A stretch of 64,000 nucleotides of DNA. Origin: an uncultured Gammaproteobacteria bacterium (GTDB lineage: Bacteria; Patescibacteriota; Patescibacteriia; UBA11705; DATKZF01). The translations under genes and the position numbers were made by a program. The notes beneath the pieces were generated by a model. That model was not told the origin of the DNA. It ran no database searches and was given only the letters and a program-made list of their open reading frames with translations. Positions 3,613 to 35,083 of the stretch are shown one piece after another. The DNA is taken from assembly GCA_964411255.1 (NCBI GenBank), contig CAYPKD010000002.1, positions 162,141 through 226,140 of the forward strand, read 5' to 3'. Within the stretch, counting starts at the first letter, position 1, and every line of letters starts with the position of its first letter.

Positions 3613-4653
3613 ATGCCAAAAGGCGAACCAATATTTGAACAACAAAAATTACCTGTTGACGTTTCTTATGAACAATTGGAAGCTCGAATTCCAGAAGTAG
3701 CTAAAATGAAAGGATTTGATCAGCGAAGTGACTTTCATACGCTGACTTTGGATGAGCATACAAAGCAGCTGGGCAGGAATTTGGAAAATAATTTAGACAG
3801 CCTGGAAAAATGGCTGAAAGATCAAAAGAAAAAGGAGGATTTAGAAAAATTAGAACAATACAAAGATTTAATTTTATTAGCTGGCAAATTACATGATTTG
3901 GGTAAAGTATCAGAAGAAGGTATGCAGGTTCATCCAAAAGATCCTGAAAAGCGCCAATATGTAGGTCATGAAAAAGAAAGTGAAAAAATTGTGCGTGAAG
4001 TCGTACCAAAGCATTTTAATCTCAAAGAAGAAGAACTTGATTTAGTGGCAAAATTAGCTGGTTTGCATGCATCAGCATTAAATTTGGTTGGAAATTTTCA
4101 ATCAAATAACCAGCCAAAAGGAAAAGGCTTAAAATCTTATGACCAGTTTTTCAAAAAAGCAGAAGCTTTGCCAATGGATGTGAATATTGAAACAAAGATG
4201 AGAATTGTTTTTGCTTTGAATAAATCAGATAAAGGCGCAGGCTGGAATGAACAAAGTGATCCTGAGGATCCAAAAGTCAAAACTGTTCAGGATAAGGCTG
4301 AAAAACAGATTAAAACGTTAGAAGAAATGGAAAAAGCTTTACCAGCATTGGTAGCTGCTATTGAAGGAAGGAGAGCAGGTGATCAGAAAGCTGGAATAGT
4401 TTTAGAAAAAGGTGAGTATGTTTATAAAGCGCCTGAGAAAAAAGAAAAGAAAAAAGTTGAGATTCCTCCAGGGTTGAAGAAATTAAGTCCGATTTTACGA
4501 GACAAGGTGCCGGCAGTGGCTGAAGTATATCCTACTTTGCAGGCAAAAAAGGGGAATGAACGGGCTTTGCAGGGCATAATAAATGGTTTGTTGAAAAAGA
4601 AGATCGGTTTGACTGATGAACAAATCGAAGCAGTTTTAAAAACACTAGAATAA
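3613..4653 (+). CDS. HD-domain phosphohydrolase-like protein
   Basis: H...HD pattern (LDEHTKQL ... AGKLHDLGK). Lys-rich C-terminus. Confidence 0.5.
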   Translation: MPKGEPIFEQQKLPVDVSYEQLEARIPEVAKMKGFDQRSDFHTLTLDEHTKQLGRNLENNLDSLEKWLKDQKKKEDLEKLEQYKDLILLAGKLHDLGKVSEEGMQVHPKDPEKRQYVGHEKESEKIVREVVPKHFNLKEEELDLVAKLAGLHASALNLVGNFQSNNQPKGKGLKSYDQFFKKAEALPMDVNIETKMRIVFALNKSDKGAGWNEQSDPEDPKVKTVQDKAEKQIKTLEEMEKALPALVAAIEGRRAGDQKAGIVLEKGEYVYKAPEKKEKKKVEIPPGLKKLSPILRDKVPAVAEVYPTLQAKKGNERALQGIINGLLKKKIGLTDEQIEAVLKTLE

Positions 4654-8029: not shown

Positions 8030-8112
8030 ACATAATCATGTGTGGACAAGACGCTGTCAAAAGTGTTTTTTTTGTTTTAAAATATAAGATATGCAAAATA
8101 AGGAGGGGTATA

Positions 8113-8775
8113 ATGCCAATAATAGCTACTTATCATGTTGATGAGATGGAATTTGGGCAAAGAGTCAGATTAATAAAAACAAGTAATTCAATATTTGTTG
8201 AACCTGATGATAATGGCGATTATGAAATCGCTGGTGTATTTCCTGATGAGCGTCAGGTATTTGTTAATAAAATAATGGACGACGCGATTAATTTTGAAGA
8301 ATGGGATGAAAGAGAAACAACTATTCGTGACTTTGATTGGCAGGACGCTGGGCCGACCCGGCATGATATTACAGAAGATGGTTCAAATGAAGAACGCCTG
8401 CAGGCATTAGCTGATGAAGATCCTGGTTTTGAAGATGATCACGAAGTCAGTGGCCTTCATATGATTAAAGCATACTCATTAGATTTTTTACCAAATGAGA
8501 CAAGGGTGCGATTAAGGCTGCTAAAAGGATATAAATTAGCTGTAAAAGATCCTAATGGTGAGTATGTCGTAACAGCGTCTGTTAAAAAAAAGATTAGAGG
8601 CGCAGATGGATATGAAATTGTAGTCACTCCAGAAGCTGAGCATCAGCGGGCATTTGAGCGGAAGATAGGAGAGCGGTATGTCACTGGCAGAAGAAGCGGA
8701 ATATGCGGGCCGAGCAGAGTGGATTTTGTATCGCCAGAACAATTGGCAGAATTTAGGAAAAAAAGGGAAAAGTAA
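8113..8775 (+). CDS. tandem-paralog family protein 1 (unknown function; internal duplicated ~60-aa module with D-x-NGEY-VV)
   Basis: RBS AAGGAGGGG 8 nt upstream of ATG at 8113. Paralogous to 8893, 9861 and 10712. Motifs HDITEDGSNEER and DPNGEYVVTA. Confidence 0.65.
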   Translation: MPIIATYHVDEMEFGQRVRLIKTSNSIFVEPDDNGDYEIAGVFPDERQVFVNKIMDDAINFEEWDERETTIRDFDWQDAGPTRHDITEDGSNEERLQALADEDPGFEDDHEVSGLHMIKAYSLDFLPNETRVRLRLLKGYKLAVKDPNGEYVVTASVKKKIRGADGYEIVVTPEAEHQRAFERKIGERYVTGRRSGICGPSRVDFVSPEQLAEFRKKREK

Positions 8776-8790
8776 TTTTTTCAAACAAAA

Positions 8791-8814
8791 ACCTTCAGCA
8801 TCTGAAGGTTTTTT
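8791..8814 (+). terminator. conserved terminator cassette copy 1 (CAAACAAAAACCTTCAGCAtcTGAAGGTTTTTT)
   Basis: Hairpin CCTTCAG/CTGAAGG plus T-run. A near-identical cassette follows each of the four paralogs. Confidence 0.7.
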
Positions 8815-8835
8815 AAATTGTGTATAAAAAGGTTA

Positions 8836-8864
8836 TTACAATTAATTTAAATTTGTTGTATAAT
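8836..8864 (+). promoter_or_regulatory. promoter TTACAA-17-TATAAT (upstream TG) for paralog 2
   Basis: -35 TTACAA at 8836-8841, -10 TATAAT at 8859-8864. RBS AAGGAGGGAG before the GTG start. Confidence 0.55.
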
Positions 8865-8892
8865 AAAAGTTGGAAATACAAAGGAGGGAGAA

Positions 8893-9561
8893 GTGAAAAT
8901 ACAAGCATCATATTTAGATTCTAGGATCACTCATGGAATAAAAGTAAGATTAGACAAAGTTGACAATCAAGCGTTTGCTATTCCAGACGAGAATGGCCAG
9001 TATGTGGTCACTGCTGTGTATGAAGAAGATTTTGTCGTATTTGTTGATGAAATAGAAAGATTTAAAGATGTCTGGGGTGAAGACACTGAAGTCTCTATTA
9101 CCAATATAGATAATGATAGTACGGTTCCTGGTAATGATTGGGAAAAGAATCCTATTACTCAGCATGAAATTACAAATAATGGTCATGAAGAACGTGCTAG
9201 GATGCAAAATTTAGATGATGAACAAGATATTGATGAAAATTCAGAAAGAGTTAGTGGATTATTTTTAGCAGTGATGACTTTAGAATTTATACCAGAAAAA
9301 GCTAGAGTTAATATTCAGACATTTAACAATCAGCAGATTGCCTTGCCTGCAGATGATGGCGAGTATGTGGTTTATTCAAACCTAAAGAATGGTCGAGGAA
9401 TATTGGTTGCTCCATATAAAGATGAGAAAAGAATAAAAGAAAGGCAATTGGCTAATCGTTATCTTTTGGGAAGGCCTTGTGGAGCTGGCAGACAAAGTAA
9501 AGCTGATTTTATTTCATCTGAGCAATTAAATCGATTGAGAGATTTGAAAAAAGATAAATGA
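8893..9561 (+). CDS. tandem-paralog family protein 2
   Basis: GTG start after RBS AAGGAGGGAGAA. Motifs HEITNNGHEER and DDGEYVV. C-terminus parallels paralog 1 (RY..GR..G..R.DF.S.EQL). Confidence 0.65.
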   Translation: MKIQASYLDSRITHGIKVRLDKVDNQAFAIPDENGQYVVTAVYEEDFVVFVDEIERFKDVWGEDTEVSITNIDNDSTVPGNDWEKNPITQHEITNNGHEERARMQNLDDEQDIDENSERVSGLFLAVMTLEFIPEKARVNIQTFNNQQIALPADDGEYVVYSNLKNGRGILVAPYKDEKRIKERQLANRYLLGRPCGAGRQSKADFISSEQLNRLRDLKKDK

Positions 9562-9593
9562 TGCAAAACAGAAATAAAATTCAAACAAAAACA

Positions 9594-9620
9594 AAAACCT
9601 TCAGCACTTGGAGGTTTTTT
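9594..9620 (+). terminator. conserved terminator cassette copy 2
   Basis: ATTCAAACAAAAACAAAAACCTTCAGCACTTGGAGGTTTTTT. Confidence 0.65.
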
Positions 9621-9860
9621 AAAAAGCAAAAATCAAAAAGCTTGCCCTGAGCTATGTCGAAGGGTAAAAACTGTGGAGTCGCTTGGCGACCTTTTTTTAT
9701 TCAAACAGCTAAACCCCTAACCCAAACTCAAATTTGCTACAAGTTACATGATATAAGTCGTATGATAAACTGTTGACGAAATGTGGAATAAATTCGCTTA
9801 TTCAATTTATTATTTTATTGTATAATTAAAATTAGGAAATAAAAAAAGGAGAGGGCAGAG

Positions 9861-10502
9861 ATGAAAAAGACAAGAAAGCTTTTTTTGTGTTCATCGAAAA
9901 TTAAAATTCTACCAGGACAAATAGTAAAAGATGAGAATGGCTTTGCTATACCCATCGAAACTTCTAATTTTAAATCACTTAATGAAAACGATATGTATAG
10001 AGTGGTTGGTTATGACGGTGATTGTTCAGTAAAAGTTGTCTCAGTTGACGAAGAGGCCGATTGCTCGACACATAATCCGTGGTGTCATGAAGATACCAAT
10101 CCGCCAGTTCGCCAGCGTATAACTAAAGATCCGGATGAATTAAGGTTTATAAGAGATGAATTAAGAGAAAAACGTCAACCTCATGTTGAGACAAAAACAT
10201 ATTCCGCTCTTATTAAAGGCAATGTAAATGTAATCGAAGGCGATAGGGTCAACATAATTGACTTTGAAGGCATTAATGGAATTGTTATCGCTGTATTAGA
10301 TGCTCTGGGCGTTTATGAAGTGATAGAAGTTGTTCAACATATTAACAAGCCGCTAATTGCCAGGCTTGTAAAAATTCAAAAGTGGAATAAAGCGCAAAGA
10401 GGCGGTCAGTATCCTGATCAGCAAGATTTAAGGGTATCAGATACTTCTTGGGTTGATGATTTCTCAAATATCAAATTTGTCCTAGAAGAAAATGATGATT
10501 AA
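9861..10502 (+). CDS. tandem-paralog family protein 3 (diverged)
   Basis: Upstream TTGTATAAT -10 and RBS AAGGAGAGGG. Shares the ITKDPDE motif and the V-N-V-I-x-GD-x-V module with paralog 4. Confidence 0.6.
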   Translation: MKKTRKLFLCSSKIKILPGQIVKDENGFAIPIETSNFKSLNENDMYRVVGYDGDCSVKVVSVDEEADCSTHNPWCHEDTNPPVRQRITKDPDELRFIRDELREKRQPHVETKTYSALIKGNVNVIEGDRVNIIDFEGINGIVIAVLDALGVYEVIEVVQHINKPLIARLVKIQKWNKAQRGGQYPDQQDLRVSDTSWVDDFSNIKFVLEENDD

Positions 10503-10530
10503 AACAAAAACACAAATTCAAACAAAAACA

Positions 10531-10558
10531 AAAAATCTTCAGCAACTGGAGATTTTTT
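10531..10558 (+). terminator. conserved terminator cassette copy 3
   Basis: ATTCAAACAAAAACAAAAAATCTTCAGCAACTGGAGATTTTTTT. Confidence 0.65.
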
Positions 10559-10711
10559 TAATAGATTAAAGATCTCCGCCAAAGGCGGACGATTTTTTTT
10601 ATTATGTATTATATGGTACAAGCTATGAGCTCTCGTGTATCGTTTGGTTATCAAAATAATTTTTTTATTGTATAATATAAGAGTTGAAAACAAAAAAATA
10701 GGAGGGAGATC

Positions 10712-11260
10712 ATGCTAACAAAATTAAGATTTTGTAATGCAAAATTACAAATAGGCGTAGGAGATAAGGTAATAGACAGAGAGGGCTTAGCATTTCCTGT
10801 TTTGTCTGATTCGACTGAAGATAGCTTAGATGTATTAGAGGTTGTTGAAGTAAATCAAGAAAAACTGGAAGTTTTGACAAGGCCATTTACAAATTTAAAT
10901 GAAGATGCATGGGCTGAAATTTCTGGATCATATGAGATAAAAACAGATCCGGGAAATAATATTACAAAAGATCCAGCGATAGAGACAAAAGGTCATGAAG
11001 AATTTGAAGTATTGATGGCTGTAATTGATGGTGAAGTAAATGTAATCCAAGGTGATCCAGTAAGAATTGTCGGTTATCGAGCACAAGCCGGAATTGTTGA
11101 TGTGGTGCCACATCCTGAAGGAGAGTATGTTATTATTGAAATTATTGCTGAGATGTCTGTACCGCGAAAAGGCTTGTGGGTGCAAATTGAACCAGATTAT
11201 GATGATGACAATGATAATGATTTTGCAGAAAAAGTAAAAGTCAAAATTTATAATGCATGA
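10712..11260 (+). CDS. tandem-paralog family protein 4 (diverged)
   Basis: Upstream TTGTATAAT and RBS AGGAGGGAGA. Motifs NNITKDPAIETKGHEE and PEGEYVIIE. Confidence 0.6.
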   Translation: MLTKLRFCNAKLQIGVGDKVIDREGLAFPVLSDSTEDSLDVLEVVEVNQEKLEVLTRPFTNLNEDAWAEISGSYEIKTDPGNNITKDPAIETKGHEEFEVLMAVIDGEVNVIQGDPVRIVGYRAQAGIVDVVPHPEGEYVIIEIIAEMSVPRKGLWVQIEPDYDDDNDNDFAEKVKVKIYNA

Positions 11261-11280
11261 AAATTCAAACAAAAACAAAA

Positions 11281-11306
11281 ACCTTCAGCACTGGAGGTTT
11301 TTTTAA
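11281..11306 (+). terminator. conserved terminator cassette copy 4
   Basis: ATTCAAACAAAAACAAAAACCTTCAGCACTGGAGGTTTTTTT. Confidence 0.65.
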
Positions 11307-11417
11307 AATCAAAAAGCAAAAAGCAAAAAGTAAAAAAAATAAAAAATTTGGAGTTTTTATTTGATTTTTTTTATAAAAAGAGATAATATGTCAATAATTA
11401 AGAAATAAGGGAATTTT

Positions 11418-11854: not shown

Positions 11855-11952
11855 TTTAGAATGTAGGCAGGAAGAAGTTTAATATAAGGGCATTATGCTC
11901 TTTTTTTGATATATATTTTATGTTTTATTATGGAGTTATCCACAGGGGATAT

Positions 11953-11980
11953 TGACTGTTCGTTTTTTGTTCGGTATAAT
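11953..11980 (+). promoter_or_regulatory. sigma70 promoter TTGACT-16-TATAAT of the lexA transcription unit
   Basis: TTGACT at 11953-11958 and TATAAT at 11975-11980. Confidence 0.6.
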
Positions 11981-12007
11981 GCCAATGAGAGTGTTCGGTA
12001 TTTGTTC
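11958..12007 (+). promoter_or_regulatory. two GTTC-N7-GTTC direct repeats (candidate LexA/SOS boxes)
   Basis: GTTCgttttttGTTC at 11958-11972 lies inside the promoter spacer. GTTCggtatttGTTC at 11993-12007 lies just downstream of the -10. The GTTC-N7-GTTC direct repeat is the described alphaproteobacterial-type SOS box. Confidence 0.4.
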
Positions 12008-12012
12008 GTAAT

Positions 12013-12478
12013 AAGCGAGATAAGCAAGACGAGCAAGAAAGCGAGACAAGTAATCCTTTAATATGGAAAATAAAAAAGAAATAAAAAGTTTTAAAGATAT
12101 TATTGTTTGGCAAAAAGCTCATCAATTGGTTCTGGAAATATATAAGATAACCAAGAATTTCCCAAGCGAAGAGCGATTTTGTTTGGTCAGTCAGATGAGA
12201 AGAGCGGTCATATCAGTAACTGCTAATATTGTTGAAGGTTTTGCCAGGAAAAAGATTTTAGAAAGTTTAAATTTTTATAATATTTCAAATGCTTCTTTAG
12301 AGGAATTAAAATATTTTATATTAATTTGTTATGATATTAATCTAATAACTAAAAATACTTATAGCAAACTATTTGAAATGAGCAAAGAGACAGGAAGGAC
12401 TTTACATGGTTGGATACAAAGTCAAAAAGTTAATGCCAACTTGTCTTGCTCGTTTCACTAGTCTTGCTTGTCTCGCTT
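12013..12478 (+). mobile_element. inverted-repeat-flanked cassette carrying a four-helix-bundle gene (MITE-like, putative)
   Basis: Left inverted repeat AAGCGAGATAAGCAAGACGAGCAAGAAAGCGAGACAAGT at 12013-12051. Right inverted repeat ACTTGTCTTGCTCGTTTCACTAGTCTTGCTTGTCTCGCTT at 12439-12478, which encodes the last 7 codons and the stop. The same repeat family recurs at 13307-13327 and as an apparently empty pair at 34994-35083. Confidence 0.35.
12063..12461 (+). CDS. four-helix-bundle protein (TIGR02436-like; 23S rRNA intervening-sequence protein family)
   Basis: WQKAHQLVLEIYKITKNFPSEERFCLVSQMRRAVISVTANIVEGFAR is typical of the family. Confidence 0.7.
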   Translation: MENKKEIKSFKDIIVWQKAHQLVLEIYKITKNFPSEERFCLVSQMRRAVISVTANIVEGFARKKILESLNFYNISNASLEELKYFILICYDINLITKNTYSKLFEMSKETGRTLHGWIQSQKVNANLSCSFH

Positions 12479-12485
12479 TAACCAT

Positions 12486-13091
12486 ATGGGAGAGCTTACA
12501 AAAAAACAATCAGAAATTTTACGCTTTATAAGTGATTATGTAAAAGAATATGATTATGCGCCAAGCTATCGGGAGATAGGGGATAATTTTAAGATTTCAT
12601 CTCCAGCTACCATTCATCAGCATATTCAAACATTAAAATCCAAAGGATTTTTAGATGTTGATGCGCAAAAAGCCAGATCTATTGAATTGACCAATAAAGT
12701 AATCAAGATGGGCAGAAGCATTGAATTGCCTTTAGTTGGTATGATTACTGCTGGACAGCCGATTGAAGCAATTGAACAAAATGAAACAATGGCCGTGCCT
12801 GCTGATTTAGTCAGAGATGAGAATTCATACATCTTAAAAGTAAAAGGAGAATCAATGATTGAAGAAGGTATTTTTAACGGTGATTTTGTGATTATTGAAA
12901 GAAACAATTATCCTCAGAATGGAGACGTAGTTGTCGCTTTATTAAATAATGCGTATGTCACTTTGAAAAAGTTTTATCGGGAAGCGACCCGCATTCGGCT
13001 GCAGCCTGCCAATTCATCTATGAAACCTATTTATTGCAAAGACGTGGCTATCAGAGGAATTGTAAAAGCTATTATTCGTAAATTTGTTTAA
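12486..13091 (+). CDS. lexA: LexA repressor (S24 peptidase)
   Basis: N-terminal wHTH, Ala-Gly cleavage site (ITAGQP), and catalytic Ser/Lys context VKGESM ... TLKKF. Alternative start at 12468 lies inside the repeat. Confidence 0.8.
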   Translation: MGELTKKQSEILRFISDYVKEYDYAPSYREIGDNFKISSPATIHQHIQTLKSKGFLDVDAQKARSIELTNKVIKMGRSIELPLVGMITAGQPIEAIEQNETMAVPADLVRDENSYILKVKGESMIEEGIFNGDFVIIERNNYPQNGDVVVALLNNAYVTLKKFYREATRIRLQPANSSMKPIYCKDVAIRGIVKAIIRKFV

Positions 13092-34923: not shown

Positions 34924-34993
34924 GTTTACCTCCTGCGCTACGGATATGACGAGTGAATTAGATCTTACAAATAATAATAATTTTTGTCAATGT

Positions 34994-35083
34994 GATAAGC
35001 AAGACAAACGAGACAAGTGAAATATGTAAAAGAATTGGAGACTTGTCTTGCTCGTCTTGCTCGTTTAACTTGTCTTGCTTATA
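34994..35083. repeat. apparently empty inverted-repeat pair of the AGCAAGACAAGT / ACTTGTCTTGCT cassette family (MITE-like)
   Basis: Left GATAAGCAAGACAAACGAGACAAGTGA and right GACTTGTCTTGCTCGTCTTGCTCGTTTAACTTGTCTTGCTTAT are separated by only 20 bp. Lies immediately upstream of the manC-like start. Confidence 0.5.

Follow-up and report, generated by a model that had tools for sequence, protein, structure and literature searches.

A tandem array of paralogous genes with a repeated 3' hairpin cassette on the chromosome of an uncultured bacterium

How do four related genes that lie in a row come to share nearly the same 3' end, when their coding regions have little sequence in common? The question is raised by positions 8038-11320 of a 64,000-nucleotide (nt) stretch of DNA from an uncultured bacterium (contig CAYPKD010000002.1, positions 162,141 to 226,140 of the forward strand), which in its entirety is called the window in this work. 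Four consecutive plus-strand genes, designated g1 to g4, are located there, each followed by a cassette of an A/C-rich tract, a short hairpin and a run of T. The analyses described below show that the locus is a chromosomal, syntenic paralog array of a small, undescribed and lineage-restricted protein family. We consider it rather probable that it is a birth-and-death array of separately transcribed units, in which the repeated terminators also act as recombination points and the products, predicted to consist of two barrels, act as binders.

The genes, their 3' cassettes and their expression signals

The open reading frames (ORFs) listed in a first-pass annotation of the window were recovered at 8113-8775 (g1), 8893-9561 (g2), 9861-10502 (g3) and 10712-11260 (g4). 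Their products of 220, 222, 213 and 182 amino acids (aa) are related and acidic, as had been reported, with isoelectric points of 4.9, 4.8, 5.2 and 4.3, respectively. The start of g1 was placed at 8113 on the basis of its ribosome-binding site and homology, in agreement with gene calls in relatives; the ATG at 8038 is merely that of the longest ORF. Gene g2 begins with GTG. No convincing gene was found on the opposite strand of 8038-11320.

A cassette does follow every gene. It is built of an A/C-rich tract of (C)AAAAA units (the CA tract), a hairpin with a CCTTCA 5' arm (TCTTCA after g3) and six or seven T. All four copies are read on the plus strand. Cassette 1 (8776-8814) consists of T6, CAAACAAAAA with a shorter CA tract, the hairpin CCTTCA-GCATC-TGAAGG and T6, and its predicted fold has an energy of -13.4 kcal/mol. 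Cassette 2 (9576-9620) comprises AAAATTCAAACAAAAACAAAAA, the hairpin CCTTCA-GCACT-TGGAGG and T6, and reaches 75.5 bits with the covariance model described below. A long (AAAACA)n tract, the hairpin TCTTCA-GCAAC-TGGAGA and T7 make up cassette 3 (10503-10559), in which the outermost pair is changed from C-G to U-A. Cassette 4 (11261-11304) has the hairpin CCTTCA-GCAC-TGGAGG and a T7 that ends at 11304, behind which an (AAAAGCA)n tract extends the feature to 11336; by position it corresponds to the cassette after g5, an additional gene in L005, the closest relative of the window. Exact copies of the 27-mer TTCAAACAAAAACAAAAACCTTCAGCA stand after g2 and g4 (0 expected). The hairpin core has six matches in the 64 kb as compared to 0.35 expected, and the CA tract five as compared to 0.5; in both cases four of the matches are in the array. 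The full cassette (tract, CCTTCA-loop-TGRRGG and T-run) is found nowhere else in the 64 kb.

To describe the variation of the element, 22 cassettes from nine loci were collected. The 5' arm is CCTTCA in 21 of them, the 3' arm is TGGAGG (13 copies), TGAAGG (5), TGAGGG (3) or TGGAGA (1), and the sole TGGAGA arm is matched by a compensatory change to TCTTCA. The loops are of 16 kinds, and the CA tract is short or absent after g1 of the window, after g1 of L005, after genes 2 and 3 of L095 and in L101. A covariance model built from 20 copies was searched against 110 kb made up of the window and related loci; its matches were the training copies alone, the cassette thus being exclusive to family genes. 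At least eight genotypes share the consensus, with about 80% identity among their DinB proteins, and paralogs down to 16-20% protein identity still have the same stem and, for the most part, the same CA-repeat tract.

The most economical reading of the cassette is that of an intrinsic terminator on the plus strand. For all 22 copies the plus-strand RNA is predicted to fold with -10 to -13.5 kcal/mol and is followed by six to eight T after the stem, so that a stable stem-loop stands directly 5' of a U-run in each. The plus-strand fold is several kcal/mol more stable than the minus-strand fold in 18 copies and about equal to it in the other four. All 3' arm variants pair only if G-U pairs are allowed, hence the better folding of the sense-strand RNA, and 97% of cells in the model-fitted alignment are paired. 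As an A-to-G change opposite U is the only thermodynamically cheap single change in so short a stem, the asymmetric variation of the two arms needs no extra function. In a control comparison, the terminators of the flanking dinB gene and of the 92-aa ORF also kept their stems across the same genomes; conservation of the stem between species is therefore not special.

Outside the family the bare stem is common. A scan of a genome collection for the hairpin returned 85 stretches, nearly all of them Bacteroidota terminators with a GCAA loop and without the CA tract, and a metagenome scan with the CA-tract pattern returned 54 stretches, with family proteins in only three (L103, L106 and L111); in viral contigs the cassette had zero matches. 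The AAAAACCTTCA...TGAAGGTTTTT terminators of unrelated AT-rich bacteria (Ferruginibacter, Chryseobacterium and others) are identical to the cassette in stem and A/T runs. They differ from it in that their loops are mostly GCAA, the CA-repeat tract is lacking, the upstream genes are unrelated and no family proteins are present. These occurrences are independent simple palindromic terminators and not homologous loci. Since the bare stem is a recurrent simple terminator, its occurrence elsewhere is meaningless. During these scans, AAAAACCTTCAGCAATGAAGGTTTTTT hairpins with a GNRA-type loop were seen to be very common in L021 (3453-3928), L071 (322-805) and many loci of Ferruginibacter and other Chitinophagaceae, usually with CTATG or CTGTG plus an ATCATG...CATGA motif on the 5' side and sometimes in tandem about 220 nt apart. 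They form a separate repeated small-gene or small-RNA family with no relation to the window.

A small ORF that traverses the cassette (MKIQTKTKTFST...) and is called as a gene of 35 aa in L001 was considered and rejected, as its frame is inconsistent across copies. Frame and start are present after g2 and g4 of the window, g4 of L005 and gene A of L097, absent or interrupted after g1, after g2 of L005 and in L098, and shifted after g3. In public assemblies a 35-aa ORF (MKIQTKTKTFSTGGFF...) is annotated at 11257-11364, which overlaps the g4 stop in an ATGA and crosses the terminator; this ORF is probably an artefact of stop-free A/C-rich sequence.

The proposal of a multigene family with shared regulatory modules was right. 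A putative -10 box, TTGTATAAT, is located upstream of g2 (8856-8864), g3 (9818-9826) and g4 (10668-10676), and g1 has a ribosome-binding site without this module. Three of the six matches to TTGTATAAT in the window are in the array, with 1.7 expected in the window. Strong Shine-Dalgarno sequences precede all four genes, namely AAGGAGGGG in front of g1 (8100-8108, read from the sequence), AGGAGGGAG in front of g2 (8882-8890) and g4 (10700-10708), and AGGAGAGGG in front of g3 (9847-9855). Two further terminator-like hairpins on the plus strand, each followed by a T-run, are unrelated to the cassette: GTCGCTTGGCGAC in the g2-g3 spacer (9678-9698) and TCCGCCAAAGGCGGA in the g3-g4 spacer (10575-10599). 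SOS (LexA) control of the array was dismissed, as the repeat GTTCG-N6-GTTCG is present only at 11958-12008 upstream of lexA and not at the array promoters. A motif at 9767-9787 of the plus strand (AAACTGTTGACGAAATGTGGA/AAACTGTTGAYGAAATGTGRA) is confined to g3 orthologs, about 75-95 nt upstream of which it is conserved; as AAACTGTTGAYGAAATGTGRA it was also seen at approximately 859-880 of L009 and 300-320 of L099. AAACTGTTGACGAAATGTGGA marks the right-hand edge of a g2-sized indel relative to L009, and AAACTGTTGAYGAAATGTGRA may serve the g3 paralog specifically as operator or second promoter.

An undescribed protein family at a fixed chromosomal site

The four proteins fall into two subfamilies. 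Subfamily A is formed by g1 and g2 (33% identity, E value 1e-34) and subfamily B by g3 and g4 (26-27%, 1e-10 to 1e-12) together with g5 of L005; the cross pairs, with 16-21% identity, are marginal by BLAST, and a single profile unites all four. The first-pass annotation had described the array as actively homogenised. This does not apply to the genes, which as paralogs have 16-34% protein identity and in which a repeat search found no long shared coding DNA; the description 'near-identical' holds for the 3' cassettes of about 45 nt only.

The family plan derived from the alignment consists of an N-terminal beta domain, a variable acidic linker, a C-terminal beta domain and a tail, which is basic in subfamily A (RYxxGRxCG...D-F-I-s-P-E...K-K) and acidic in subfamily B, including g3. 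The internal duplication postulated earlier is real, given the profile and hidden Markov model (HMM) matches between the two domains: hhalign aligned the N-domain with the C-domain profile at a probability of 83% (E value 9e-6), and the C-domain HMM also matched the N domains of g1 (7e-5) and g2 (3e-6). The shared motifs were likewise borne out. The I-T of the linker and the G-x-Y of the C domain are invariant in a 10-sequence alignment, and the linker T and the C-domain G stay invariant once more distant members join it; I-T is embedded in a conserved [RH]-x-I-T-x-D context and the G in the motif D-x-x-G-E-Y-V-V. In g1, the N domain (about aa 1-55) is followed by a disordered acidic linker with TRHDITEDG (56-114), the C domain (about 115-175) and the basic tail RYxTGRRSGICG...KKREK. 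In g4, the beta domains (about aa 1-60 and 100-162) enclose a disordered linker with NITKDP (63-98), and the tail is acidic.

AlphaFold2 models were obtained for g1 (7 sequences, mean predicted local distance difference test (pLDDT) score of 60) and g4 (14 sequences, mean pLDDT of 67, five of five models concordant). Both show two five-stranded beta domains (pLDDT of about 75-87) with a disordered linker between them, and a C-terminal tail of low confidence, which is disordered in g4 and partly helical in g1. DSSP assigned five strands to each of the four modelled domains, the strand count of a beta-tulip, and a helix between strands 3 and 4 (33-37) to the N domain of g4 only; beta-tulips have a helical linker between these strands and the topology +3,+1,-2,-1. 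In these models the array proteins look like two small five-stranded barrels of beta-tulip-like appearance. No known domain had been recognised in the sequence before, and searches of Pfam, PHROG, NCBIfam, PADLOC, PDB sequences and PDB profiles were all without a match. A two-barrel c-di-GMP receptor of the PilZ/YcgR type was rejected, as the RxxxR and D/NxSxxG motifs are not present. A signal peptide or lipoprotein signal in g3 and g4 (MKK..LFLCSS) was rejected too, as in the alignment these residues match beta strand 1 of every member.

The family is small. Word-indexed searches of 5.8 billion proteins returned no more than the proteins of the window itself plus two or three related ones. 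When 1.84 billion cluster representatives were searched exhaustively with a HMMER profile, 11 matches were obtained, 10 of which are true members of 181-222 aa. P0013 (795 aa), a repetitive Ig-like adhesin matched via GxYxVTA, was not accepted as a family member. Neither of the objections foreseen in the first-pass annotation applies: the array proteins match no common housekeeping family, and the cassettes are also present in related loci. The work thereby defines an unannotated family with about ten members in 1.84 billion representatives, a clear domain plan and a conserved linker motif.

All members with a readable contig are part of arrays of two to four family genes, and the array occupies the same chromosomal place wherever the flank suffices. 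On its left side the conserved order is murF, an AstE/AspA-like gene and a 304-aa ORF (both on the minus strand) and a gene for a single-pass membrane protein of 280-340 aa; on its right side it is a 51-55-aa ORF, a 90-92-aa ORF, sometimes a 23S-IVP/bAvd-like ORF, lexA, an 82-91-aa ORF and dinB. The window is ordinary chromosome, with genes for MurF, a NiFe hydrogenase of group-3 type, phosphoglycerate mutase and F-type ATPase. Its GC content is 33% throughout, and that of the array (0.33-0.34) is like that of the flanks. ORF domain searches revealed no recombinase, phage, toxin or secretion genes within about 8 kb of the array, and no integrase or recombinase was found in the syntenic loci of relatives. 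Searches of the four array proteins and their neighbours with Pfam, NCBIfam and PADLOC gave no toxin, immunity or antitoxin match. A toxin-immunity or toxin-antitoxin pair was therefore rejected, there being neither an adjacent toxin gene nor a match to known immunity or antitoxin families. Further upstream in the window (3613-4653), a 346-aa HD-domain protein weakly resembles the Cas3'' HD nuclease below threshold (NCBIfam, 30.7 bits at a cut-off of 43; PADLOC Cas3, E value 2e-8); no further cas genes or CRISPR array were seen near it.

Turnover of units and competing explanations

The array of L005, in which flanking proteins are 83-94% identical to those of the window, has the order g1-g2-g4-g5; it lacks g3 in an otherwise collinear locus and contains the extra gene g5 (144 aa). 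In a blastn comparison the two loci were collinear up to 9639, the end of the g2 cassette region, and again from 10635. The g5 unit (543 bp) is flanked by two cassette copies in L005 (7419-7483 and 8017-8084), where the window has one (11257-11315). In the more distant L009, g1 is followed directly by the g3 ortholog; here the break is right after cassette 1 (8817), and similarity resumes at 9765. Other genotypes have A-B, A-B-C or B-C combinations. Units are thus gained and lost as a whole, beginning at the cassettes. The pattern is that expected from unequal or illegitimate recombination between direct repeats of 45-65 bp and does not in itself establish a dedicated recombination system. The array-edge spacers of several relatives (L009, 1-40; L101, 1375-1421; L099, about 130-170) share a recurrent GC-rich palindrome, GCCTGCCTGCCGGTAGGCAGGGCAGGC, behind which GATCAC or ATTACGGATATTTA often stands. 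It is not present in the array of the window and looks like a repetitive extragenic palindromic (REP) element or a miniature inverted-repeat transposable element (MITE).

Orthologs in L005 are 90% (g1), 90.5% (g2) and 78% (g4) identical, and their ratios of non-synonymous to synonymous substitution rates (dN/dS) are 0.18, 0.20 and 0.14, respectively, as compared to 0.05-0.16 for six flanking genes. Array genes are hence functional and under purifying selection at this distance, and no bulk arms-race signal was present in dN/dS against L005. Distant relatives have LexA and DinB proteins with 75-92% and 79-81% identity, respectively, but a best array match of only about 30%. This reflects either fast long-term divergence or the retention of different members of an old paralog pool; as the arrays change unit by unit at the cassettes, the latter is more likely.

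A birth-and-death array would probably have arisen as follows. Complete transcription units would have been duplicated in tandem, each with a -10 box, an A-rich leader of 20-25 nt and a consensus Shine-Dalgarno sequence in front of the coding region and, behind it, an A/C-rich tract, a hairpin of 6 bp (CCUUCA/UGRRGG) and a U-run. Their coding parts would then have split into subfamilies A and B with a basic and an acidic tail, respectively. The terminator would have been kept for two reasons, namely that in a stem of 6 bp, three of them G-C, no change other than A-to-G opposite U is tolerated, and that recombination is ongoing among the repeats of 45-65 bp. These repeats would be the sites at which units are lost or gained, such that related genomes ended up with different gene subsets. 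At the same time the cassettes would terminate transcription and insulate the units. The proteins would be cytoplasmic, with their two barrels joined by the disordered acidic linker that carries [RH]-x-I-T-x-D. They probably bind other proteins and serve as adaptors or inhibitors whose partners are diverse or diverging, a role that their acidity, turnover and fast long-term divergence would fit.

Several points weigh against this account. The cassettes are missing from the output of a simple consensus terminator scan, probably owing to pairing between A-tract and T-run. Covariation in support of the hairpin is weak, with one compensatory pair and a score that is reached by 29 of 500 shuffles, since the stem hardly varies. 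Termination alone leaves the conserved CA tract unexplained, and site-specific recombination would give an identical picture of the indel junctions. Promoter and terminator activity we infer from sequence features.

The cassette might alternatively be a family-specific RNA signal in the 3' untranslated region (3' UTR), which is read by an RNA-binding factor or by the family proteins and co-regulates all paralog mRNAs in their stability or translation, or it might yield small RNAs derived from the 3' UTR. Hfq recognises ARN repeats and U-tails, and ProQ/FinO proteins recognise an A-rich 5' flank plus a terminator hairpin (PMC9037510, a review). The cassette has the corresponding layout of AAC-AAA-AAC-AAA-AAC, hairpin and U6-8: its tract fits the ARN repeat of the Hfq distal face, and the A-rich stretch 5' of the hairpin together with the U-tail is a ProQ/FinO-type pattern. 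The strict co-occurrence of cassette and family genes across the 110 kb, the persistence of the CA tract together with the 5' arm in eight or more genotypes, also where protein identity is only 16-36%, and the basic C-terminal tail of subfamily A proteins would also agree with such a signal. However, the orthologous dinB and 92-aa ORF terminators also keep their stems, thermodynamics alone predicts that the 5' arm is invariant while the 3' arm has A/G changes, and the CA tract is not retained in every copy; no Hfq or ProQ gene turned up in the 64 kb, in which no search aimed at one was made. We regard an RNA signal as unlikely. Quite unlikely in our estimate is the more elaborate version, in which (CAAAAA)n-CCUUCA hairpin-U6 is a dedicated RNA tag on the mRNAs of one family and the tags double as recombination handles for swapping members. 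In that event a trans-acting factor, possibly the two-barrel proteins by means of the basic tail of subfamily A, would set stability or translation of the family mRNAs, and each array would be a post-transcriptionally coupled regulon.

The remaining explanations fare less well. It is very unlikely that ongoing concerted evolution is at work, with gene conversion keeping the members of a multigene family alike during an arms race (antigenic, effector or immunity-like). Such a process would account for the identical 21-27-mer in three window cassettes, whose L005 counterparts differ among themselves by 1-3 nt, for the coincidence of indel junctions with cassettes, and, as regards the arms race, for array proteins with about 30% identity between distant relatives in which LexA and DinB have 80-92%. 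Yet coding DNA is not homogenised, and a single cassette consensus held across species in at least eight genotypes is beyond the reach of conversion within one genome, which alone is therefore insufficient; the three identical 21-mers and the indel junctions allow some recombination between copies. The dN/dS values of 0.14-0.20 give no sign of diversifying selection between close relatives; the proteins lack signal peptides, and neither toxin nor secretion genes were found within 8 kb. An antigenic role, one of those suggested in the first-pass annotation, is unlikely, given the lack of a signal peptide and N termini that align as a beta strand. Its suggestion of effector or immunity-like proteins is a reasonable guess and may be right. 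In its favour are the restriction of the family to one lineage, its acidity, its variable copy number and a divergence between relatives that far exceeds that of the neighbouring genes; against it stand the dN/dS values and the lack of nearby toxin, secretion or recombinase genes. A phage-derived island of morons or anti-defence (Acr-like) genes left by a prophage is highly improbable. The beta-tulip-like fold, as found in capsid decoration proteins and AcrIIC1, would suit it, but the context is syntenic and housekeeping, without phage structural, integrase or repressor genes; tblastn against 50,697 phage records gave zero matches, as did the cassette scan of viral contigs, and there was neither a PHROG match nor a significant BFVD match. 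Repetitive elements between the genes, at which unit gain and loss begin, could also point to a mobile cassette system of the integron or rAID-1 type with the 3' element as the site of a site-specific recombinase. This idea is already largely refuted and is hardly credible: no integrase or XerD-type gene is present within about 8 kb on either side or in syntenic loci, the genes belong to a single family instead of being mixed and have their own promoters, GC content equals that of the neighbours, the chromosomal location is fixed in all relatives, and attC-type core sites were not seen on reading the sequence. An integron was specifically rejected for want of IntI and attI, as the genes have their own -10 box and Shine-Dalgarno sequence and the element is a 6-bp hairpin with A/T runs rather than attC (RYYYAAC...GTTRRRY); a rAID-1 cluster was rejected as there is no XerD-family recombinase, no skewed GC content and only one gene family. 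A diversity-generating retroelement was rejected as well, there being no reverse transcriptase, no template/variable repeat pair and no repeated coding DNA; the bAvd-like/23S-IVP ORF lies 0.8 kb downstream of the array, and L095 is without that ORF yet keeps the array.

Neighbouring elements and comparison with known systems

This 132-aa ORF (12063-12461), which resembles 23S-rRNA-IVP/bAvd proteins, has a long array of a 9-nt repeat unit on either side, the two being inverted relative to each other (AAGCAAGAC-type, 12013-12053; GTCTTGCTT-type, 12441-12479). Stem and ORF together (11950-12486) separate the lexA start from the lexA promoter, in which two GTTCG-N6-GTTCG direct repeats are found (11958-12008). 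In L095 these promoter repeats and lexA are also present, but the insert is missing. The element looks like a stem-loop cassette of the intervening-sequence type that entered an mRNA leader. At 34993-35083, just upstream of an NTP-transferase/ManC-like gene, the stem is found again as an 'empty' copy (GATAAGCAAGACAAACGAGACAAG ... CTTGTCTTGCTCGTCTTGCTCG..CTTGTCTTGCTTAT, about 60 nt apart); the window hence contains a minimum of two such stems, one that encloses the ORF and one that does not.

As it stands, the array is a well-documented orphan locus, and a new mechanism is not demonstrated. Tandem paralog arrays under birth-and-death evolution are of a kind already known; new is the undescribed protein family, and unusual the tidy unit architecture with a family-wide terminator. 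The locus would provide a clean natural example of whole transcription units that are duplicated, insulated and shuffled via recombination at terminators. If the proteins bind or inhibit variable partners, or if the terminator is an RNA signal, it would also shed light on the biology of conflict or regulation in a little-known uncultivated lineage.

With regard to fold, the nearest class are the beta-tulip proteins, among them the decoration or cement proteins of phages (P74-26 gp87, lambda gpD) and the tandem tulips of phi29 gp12 D4, and further herpesvirus triplex proteins, MoeA and AcrIIC1, which is an anti-CRISPR protein. The cassette resembles Hfq/ProQ modules in having (AAN)4-6 directly 5' of a short hairpin, which is followed by U6-8; it differs in that the cassettes are mRNA 3' ends in a low-GC lineage and the A-tract also extends the stem against the U-run. 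Like phage morons, the array genes are self-contained, insulated transcription units, but these units are located outside a prophage, with four homologous ones in a row at a conserved chromosomal locus. The rAID-1 arrays of Bacteroidales have repetitive intergenic sequences reminiscent of integrons (bioRxiv 10.1101/471110). Such repetitive intergenic sequences are also present in the array described here, which shares with rAID-1 and integron arrays the tandem small genes, the repeated intergenic elements and a content that varies between strains. In contrast to both, it is composed of one paralog family at a fixed site, has no recombinase and a normal GC content, and provides each gene with its own promoter and terminator.

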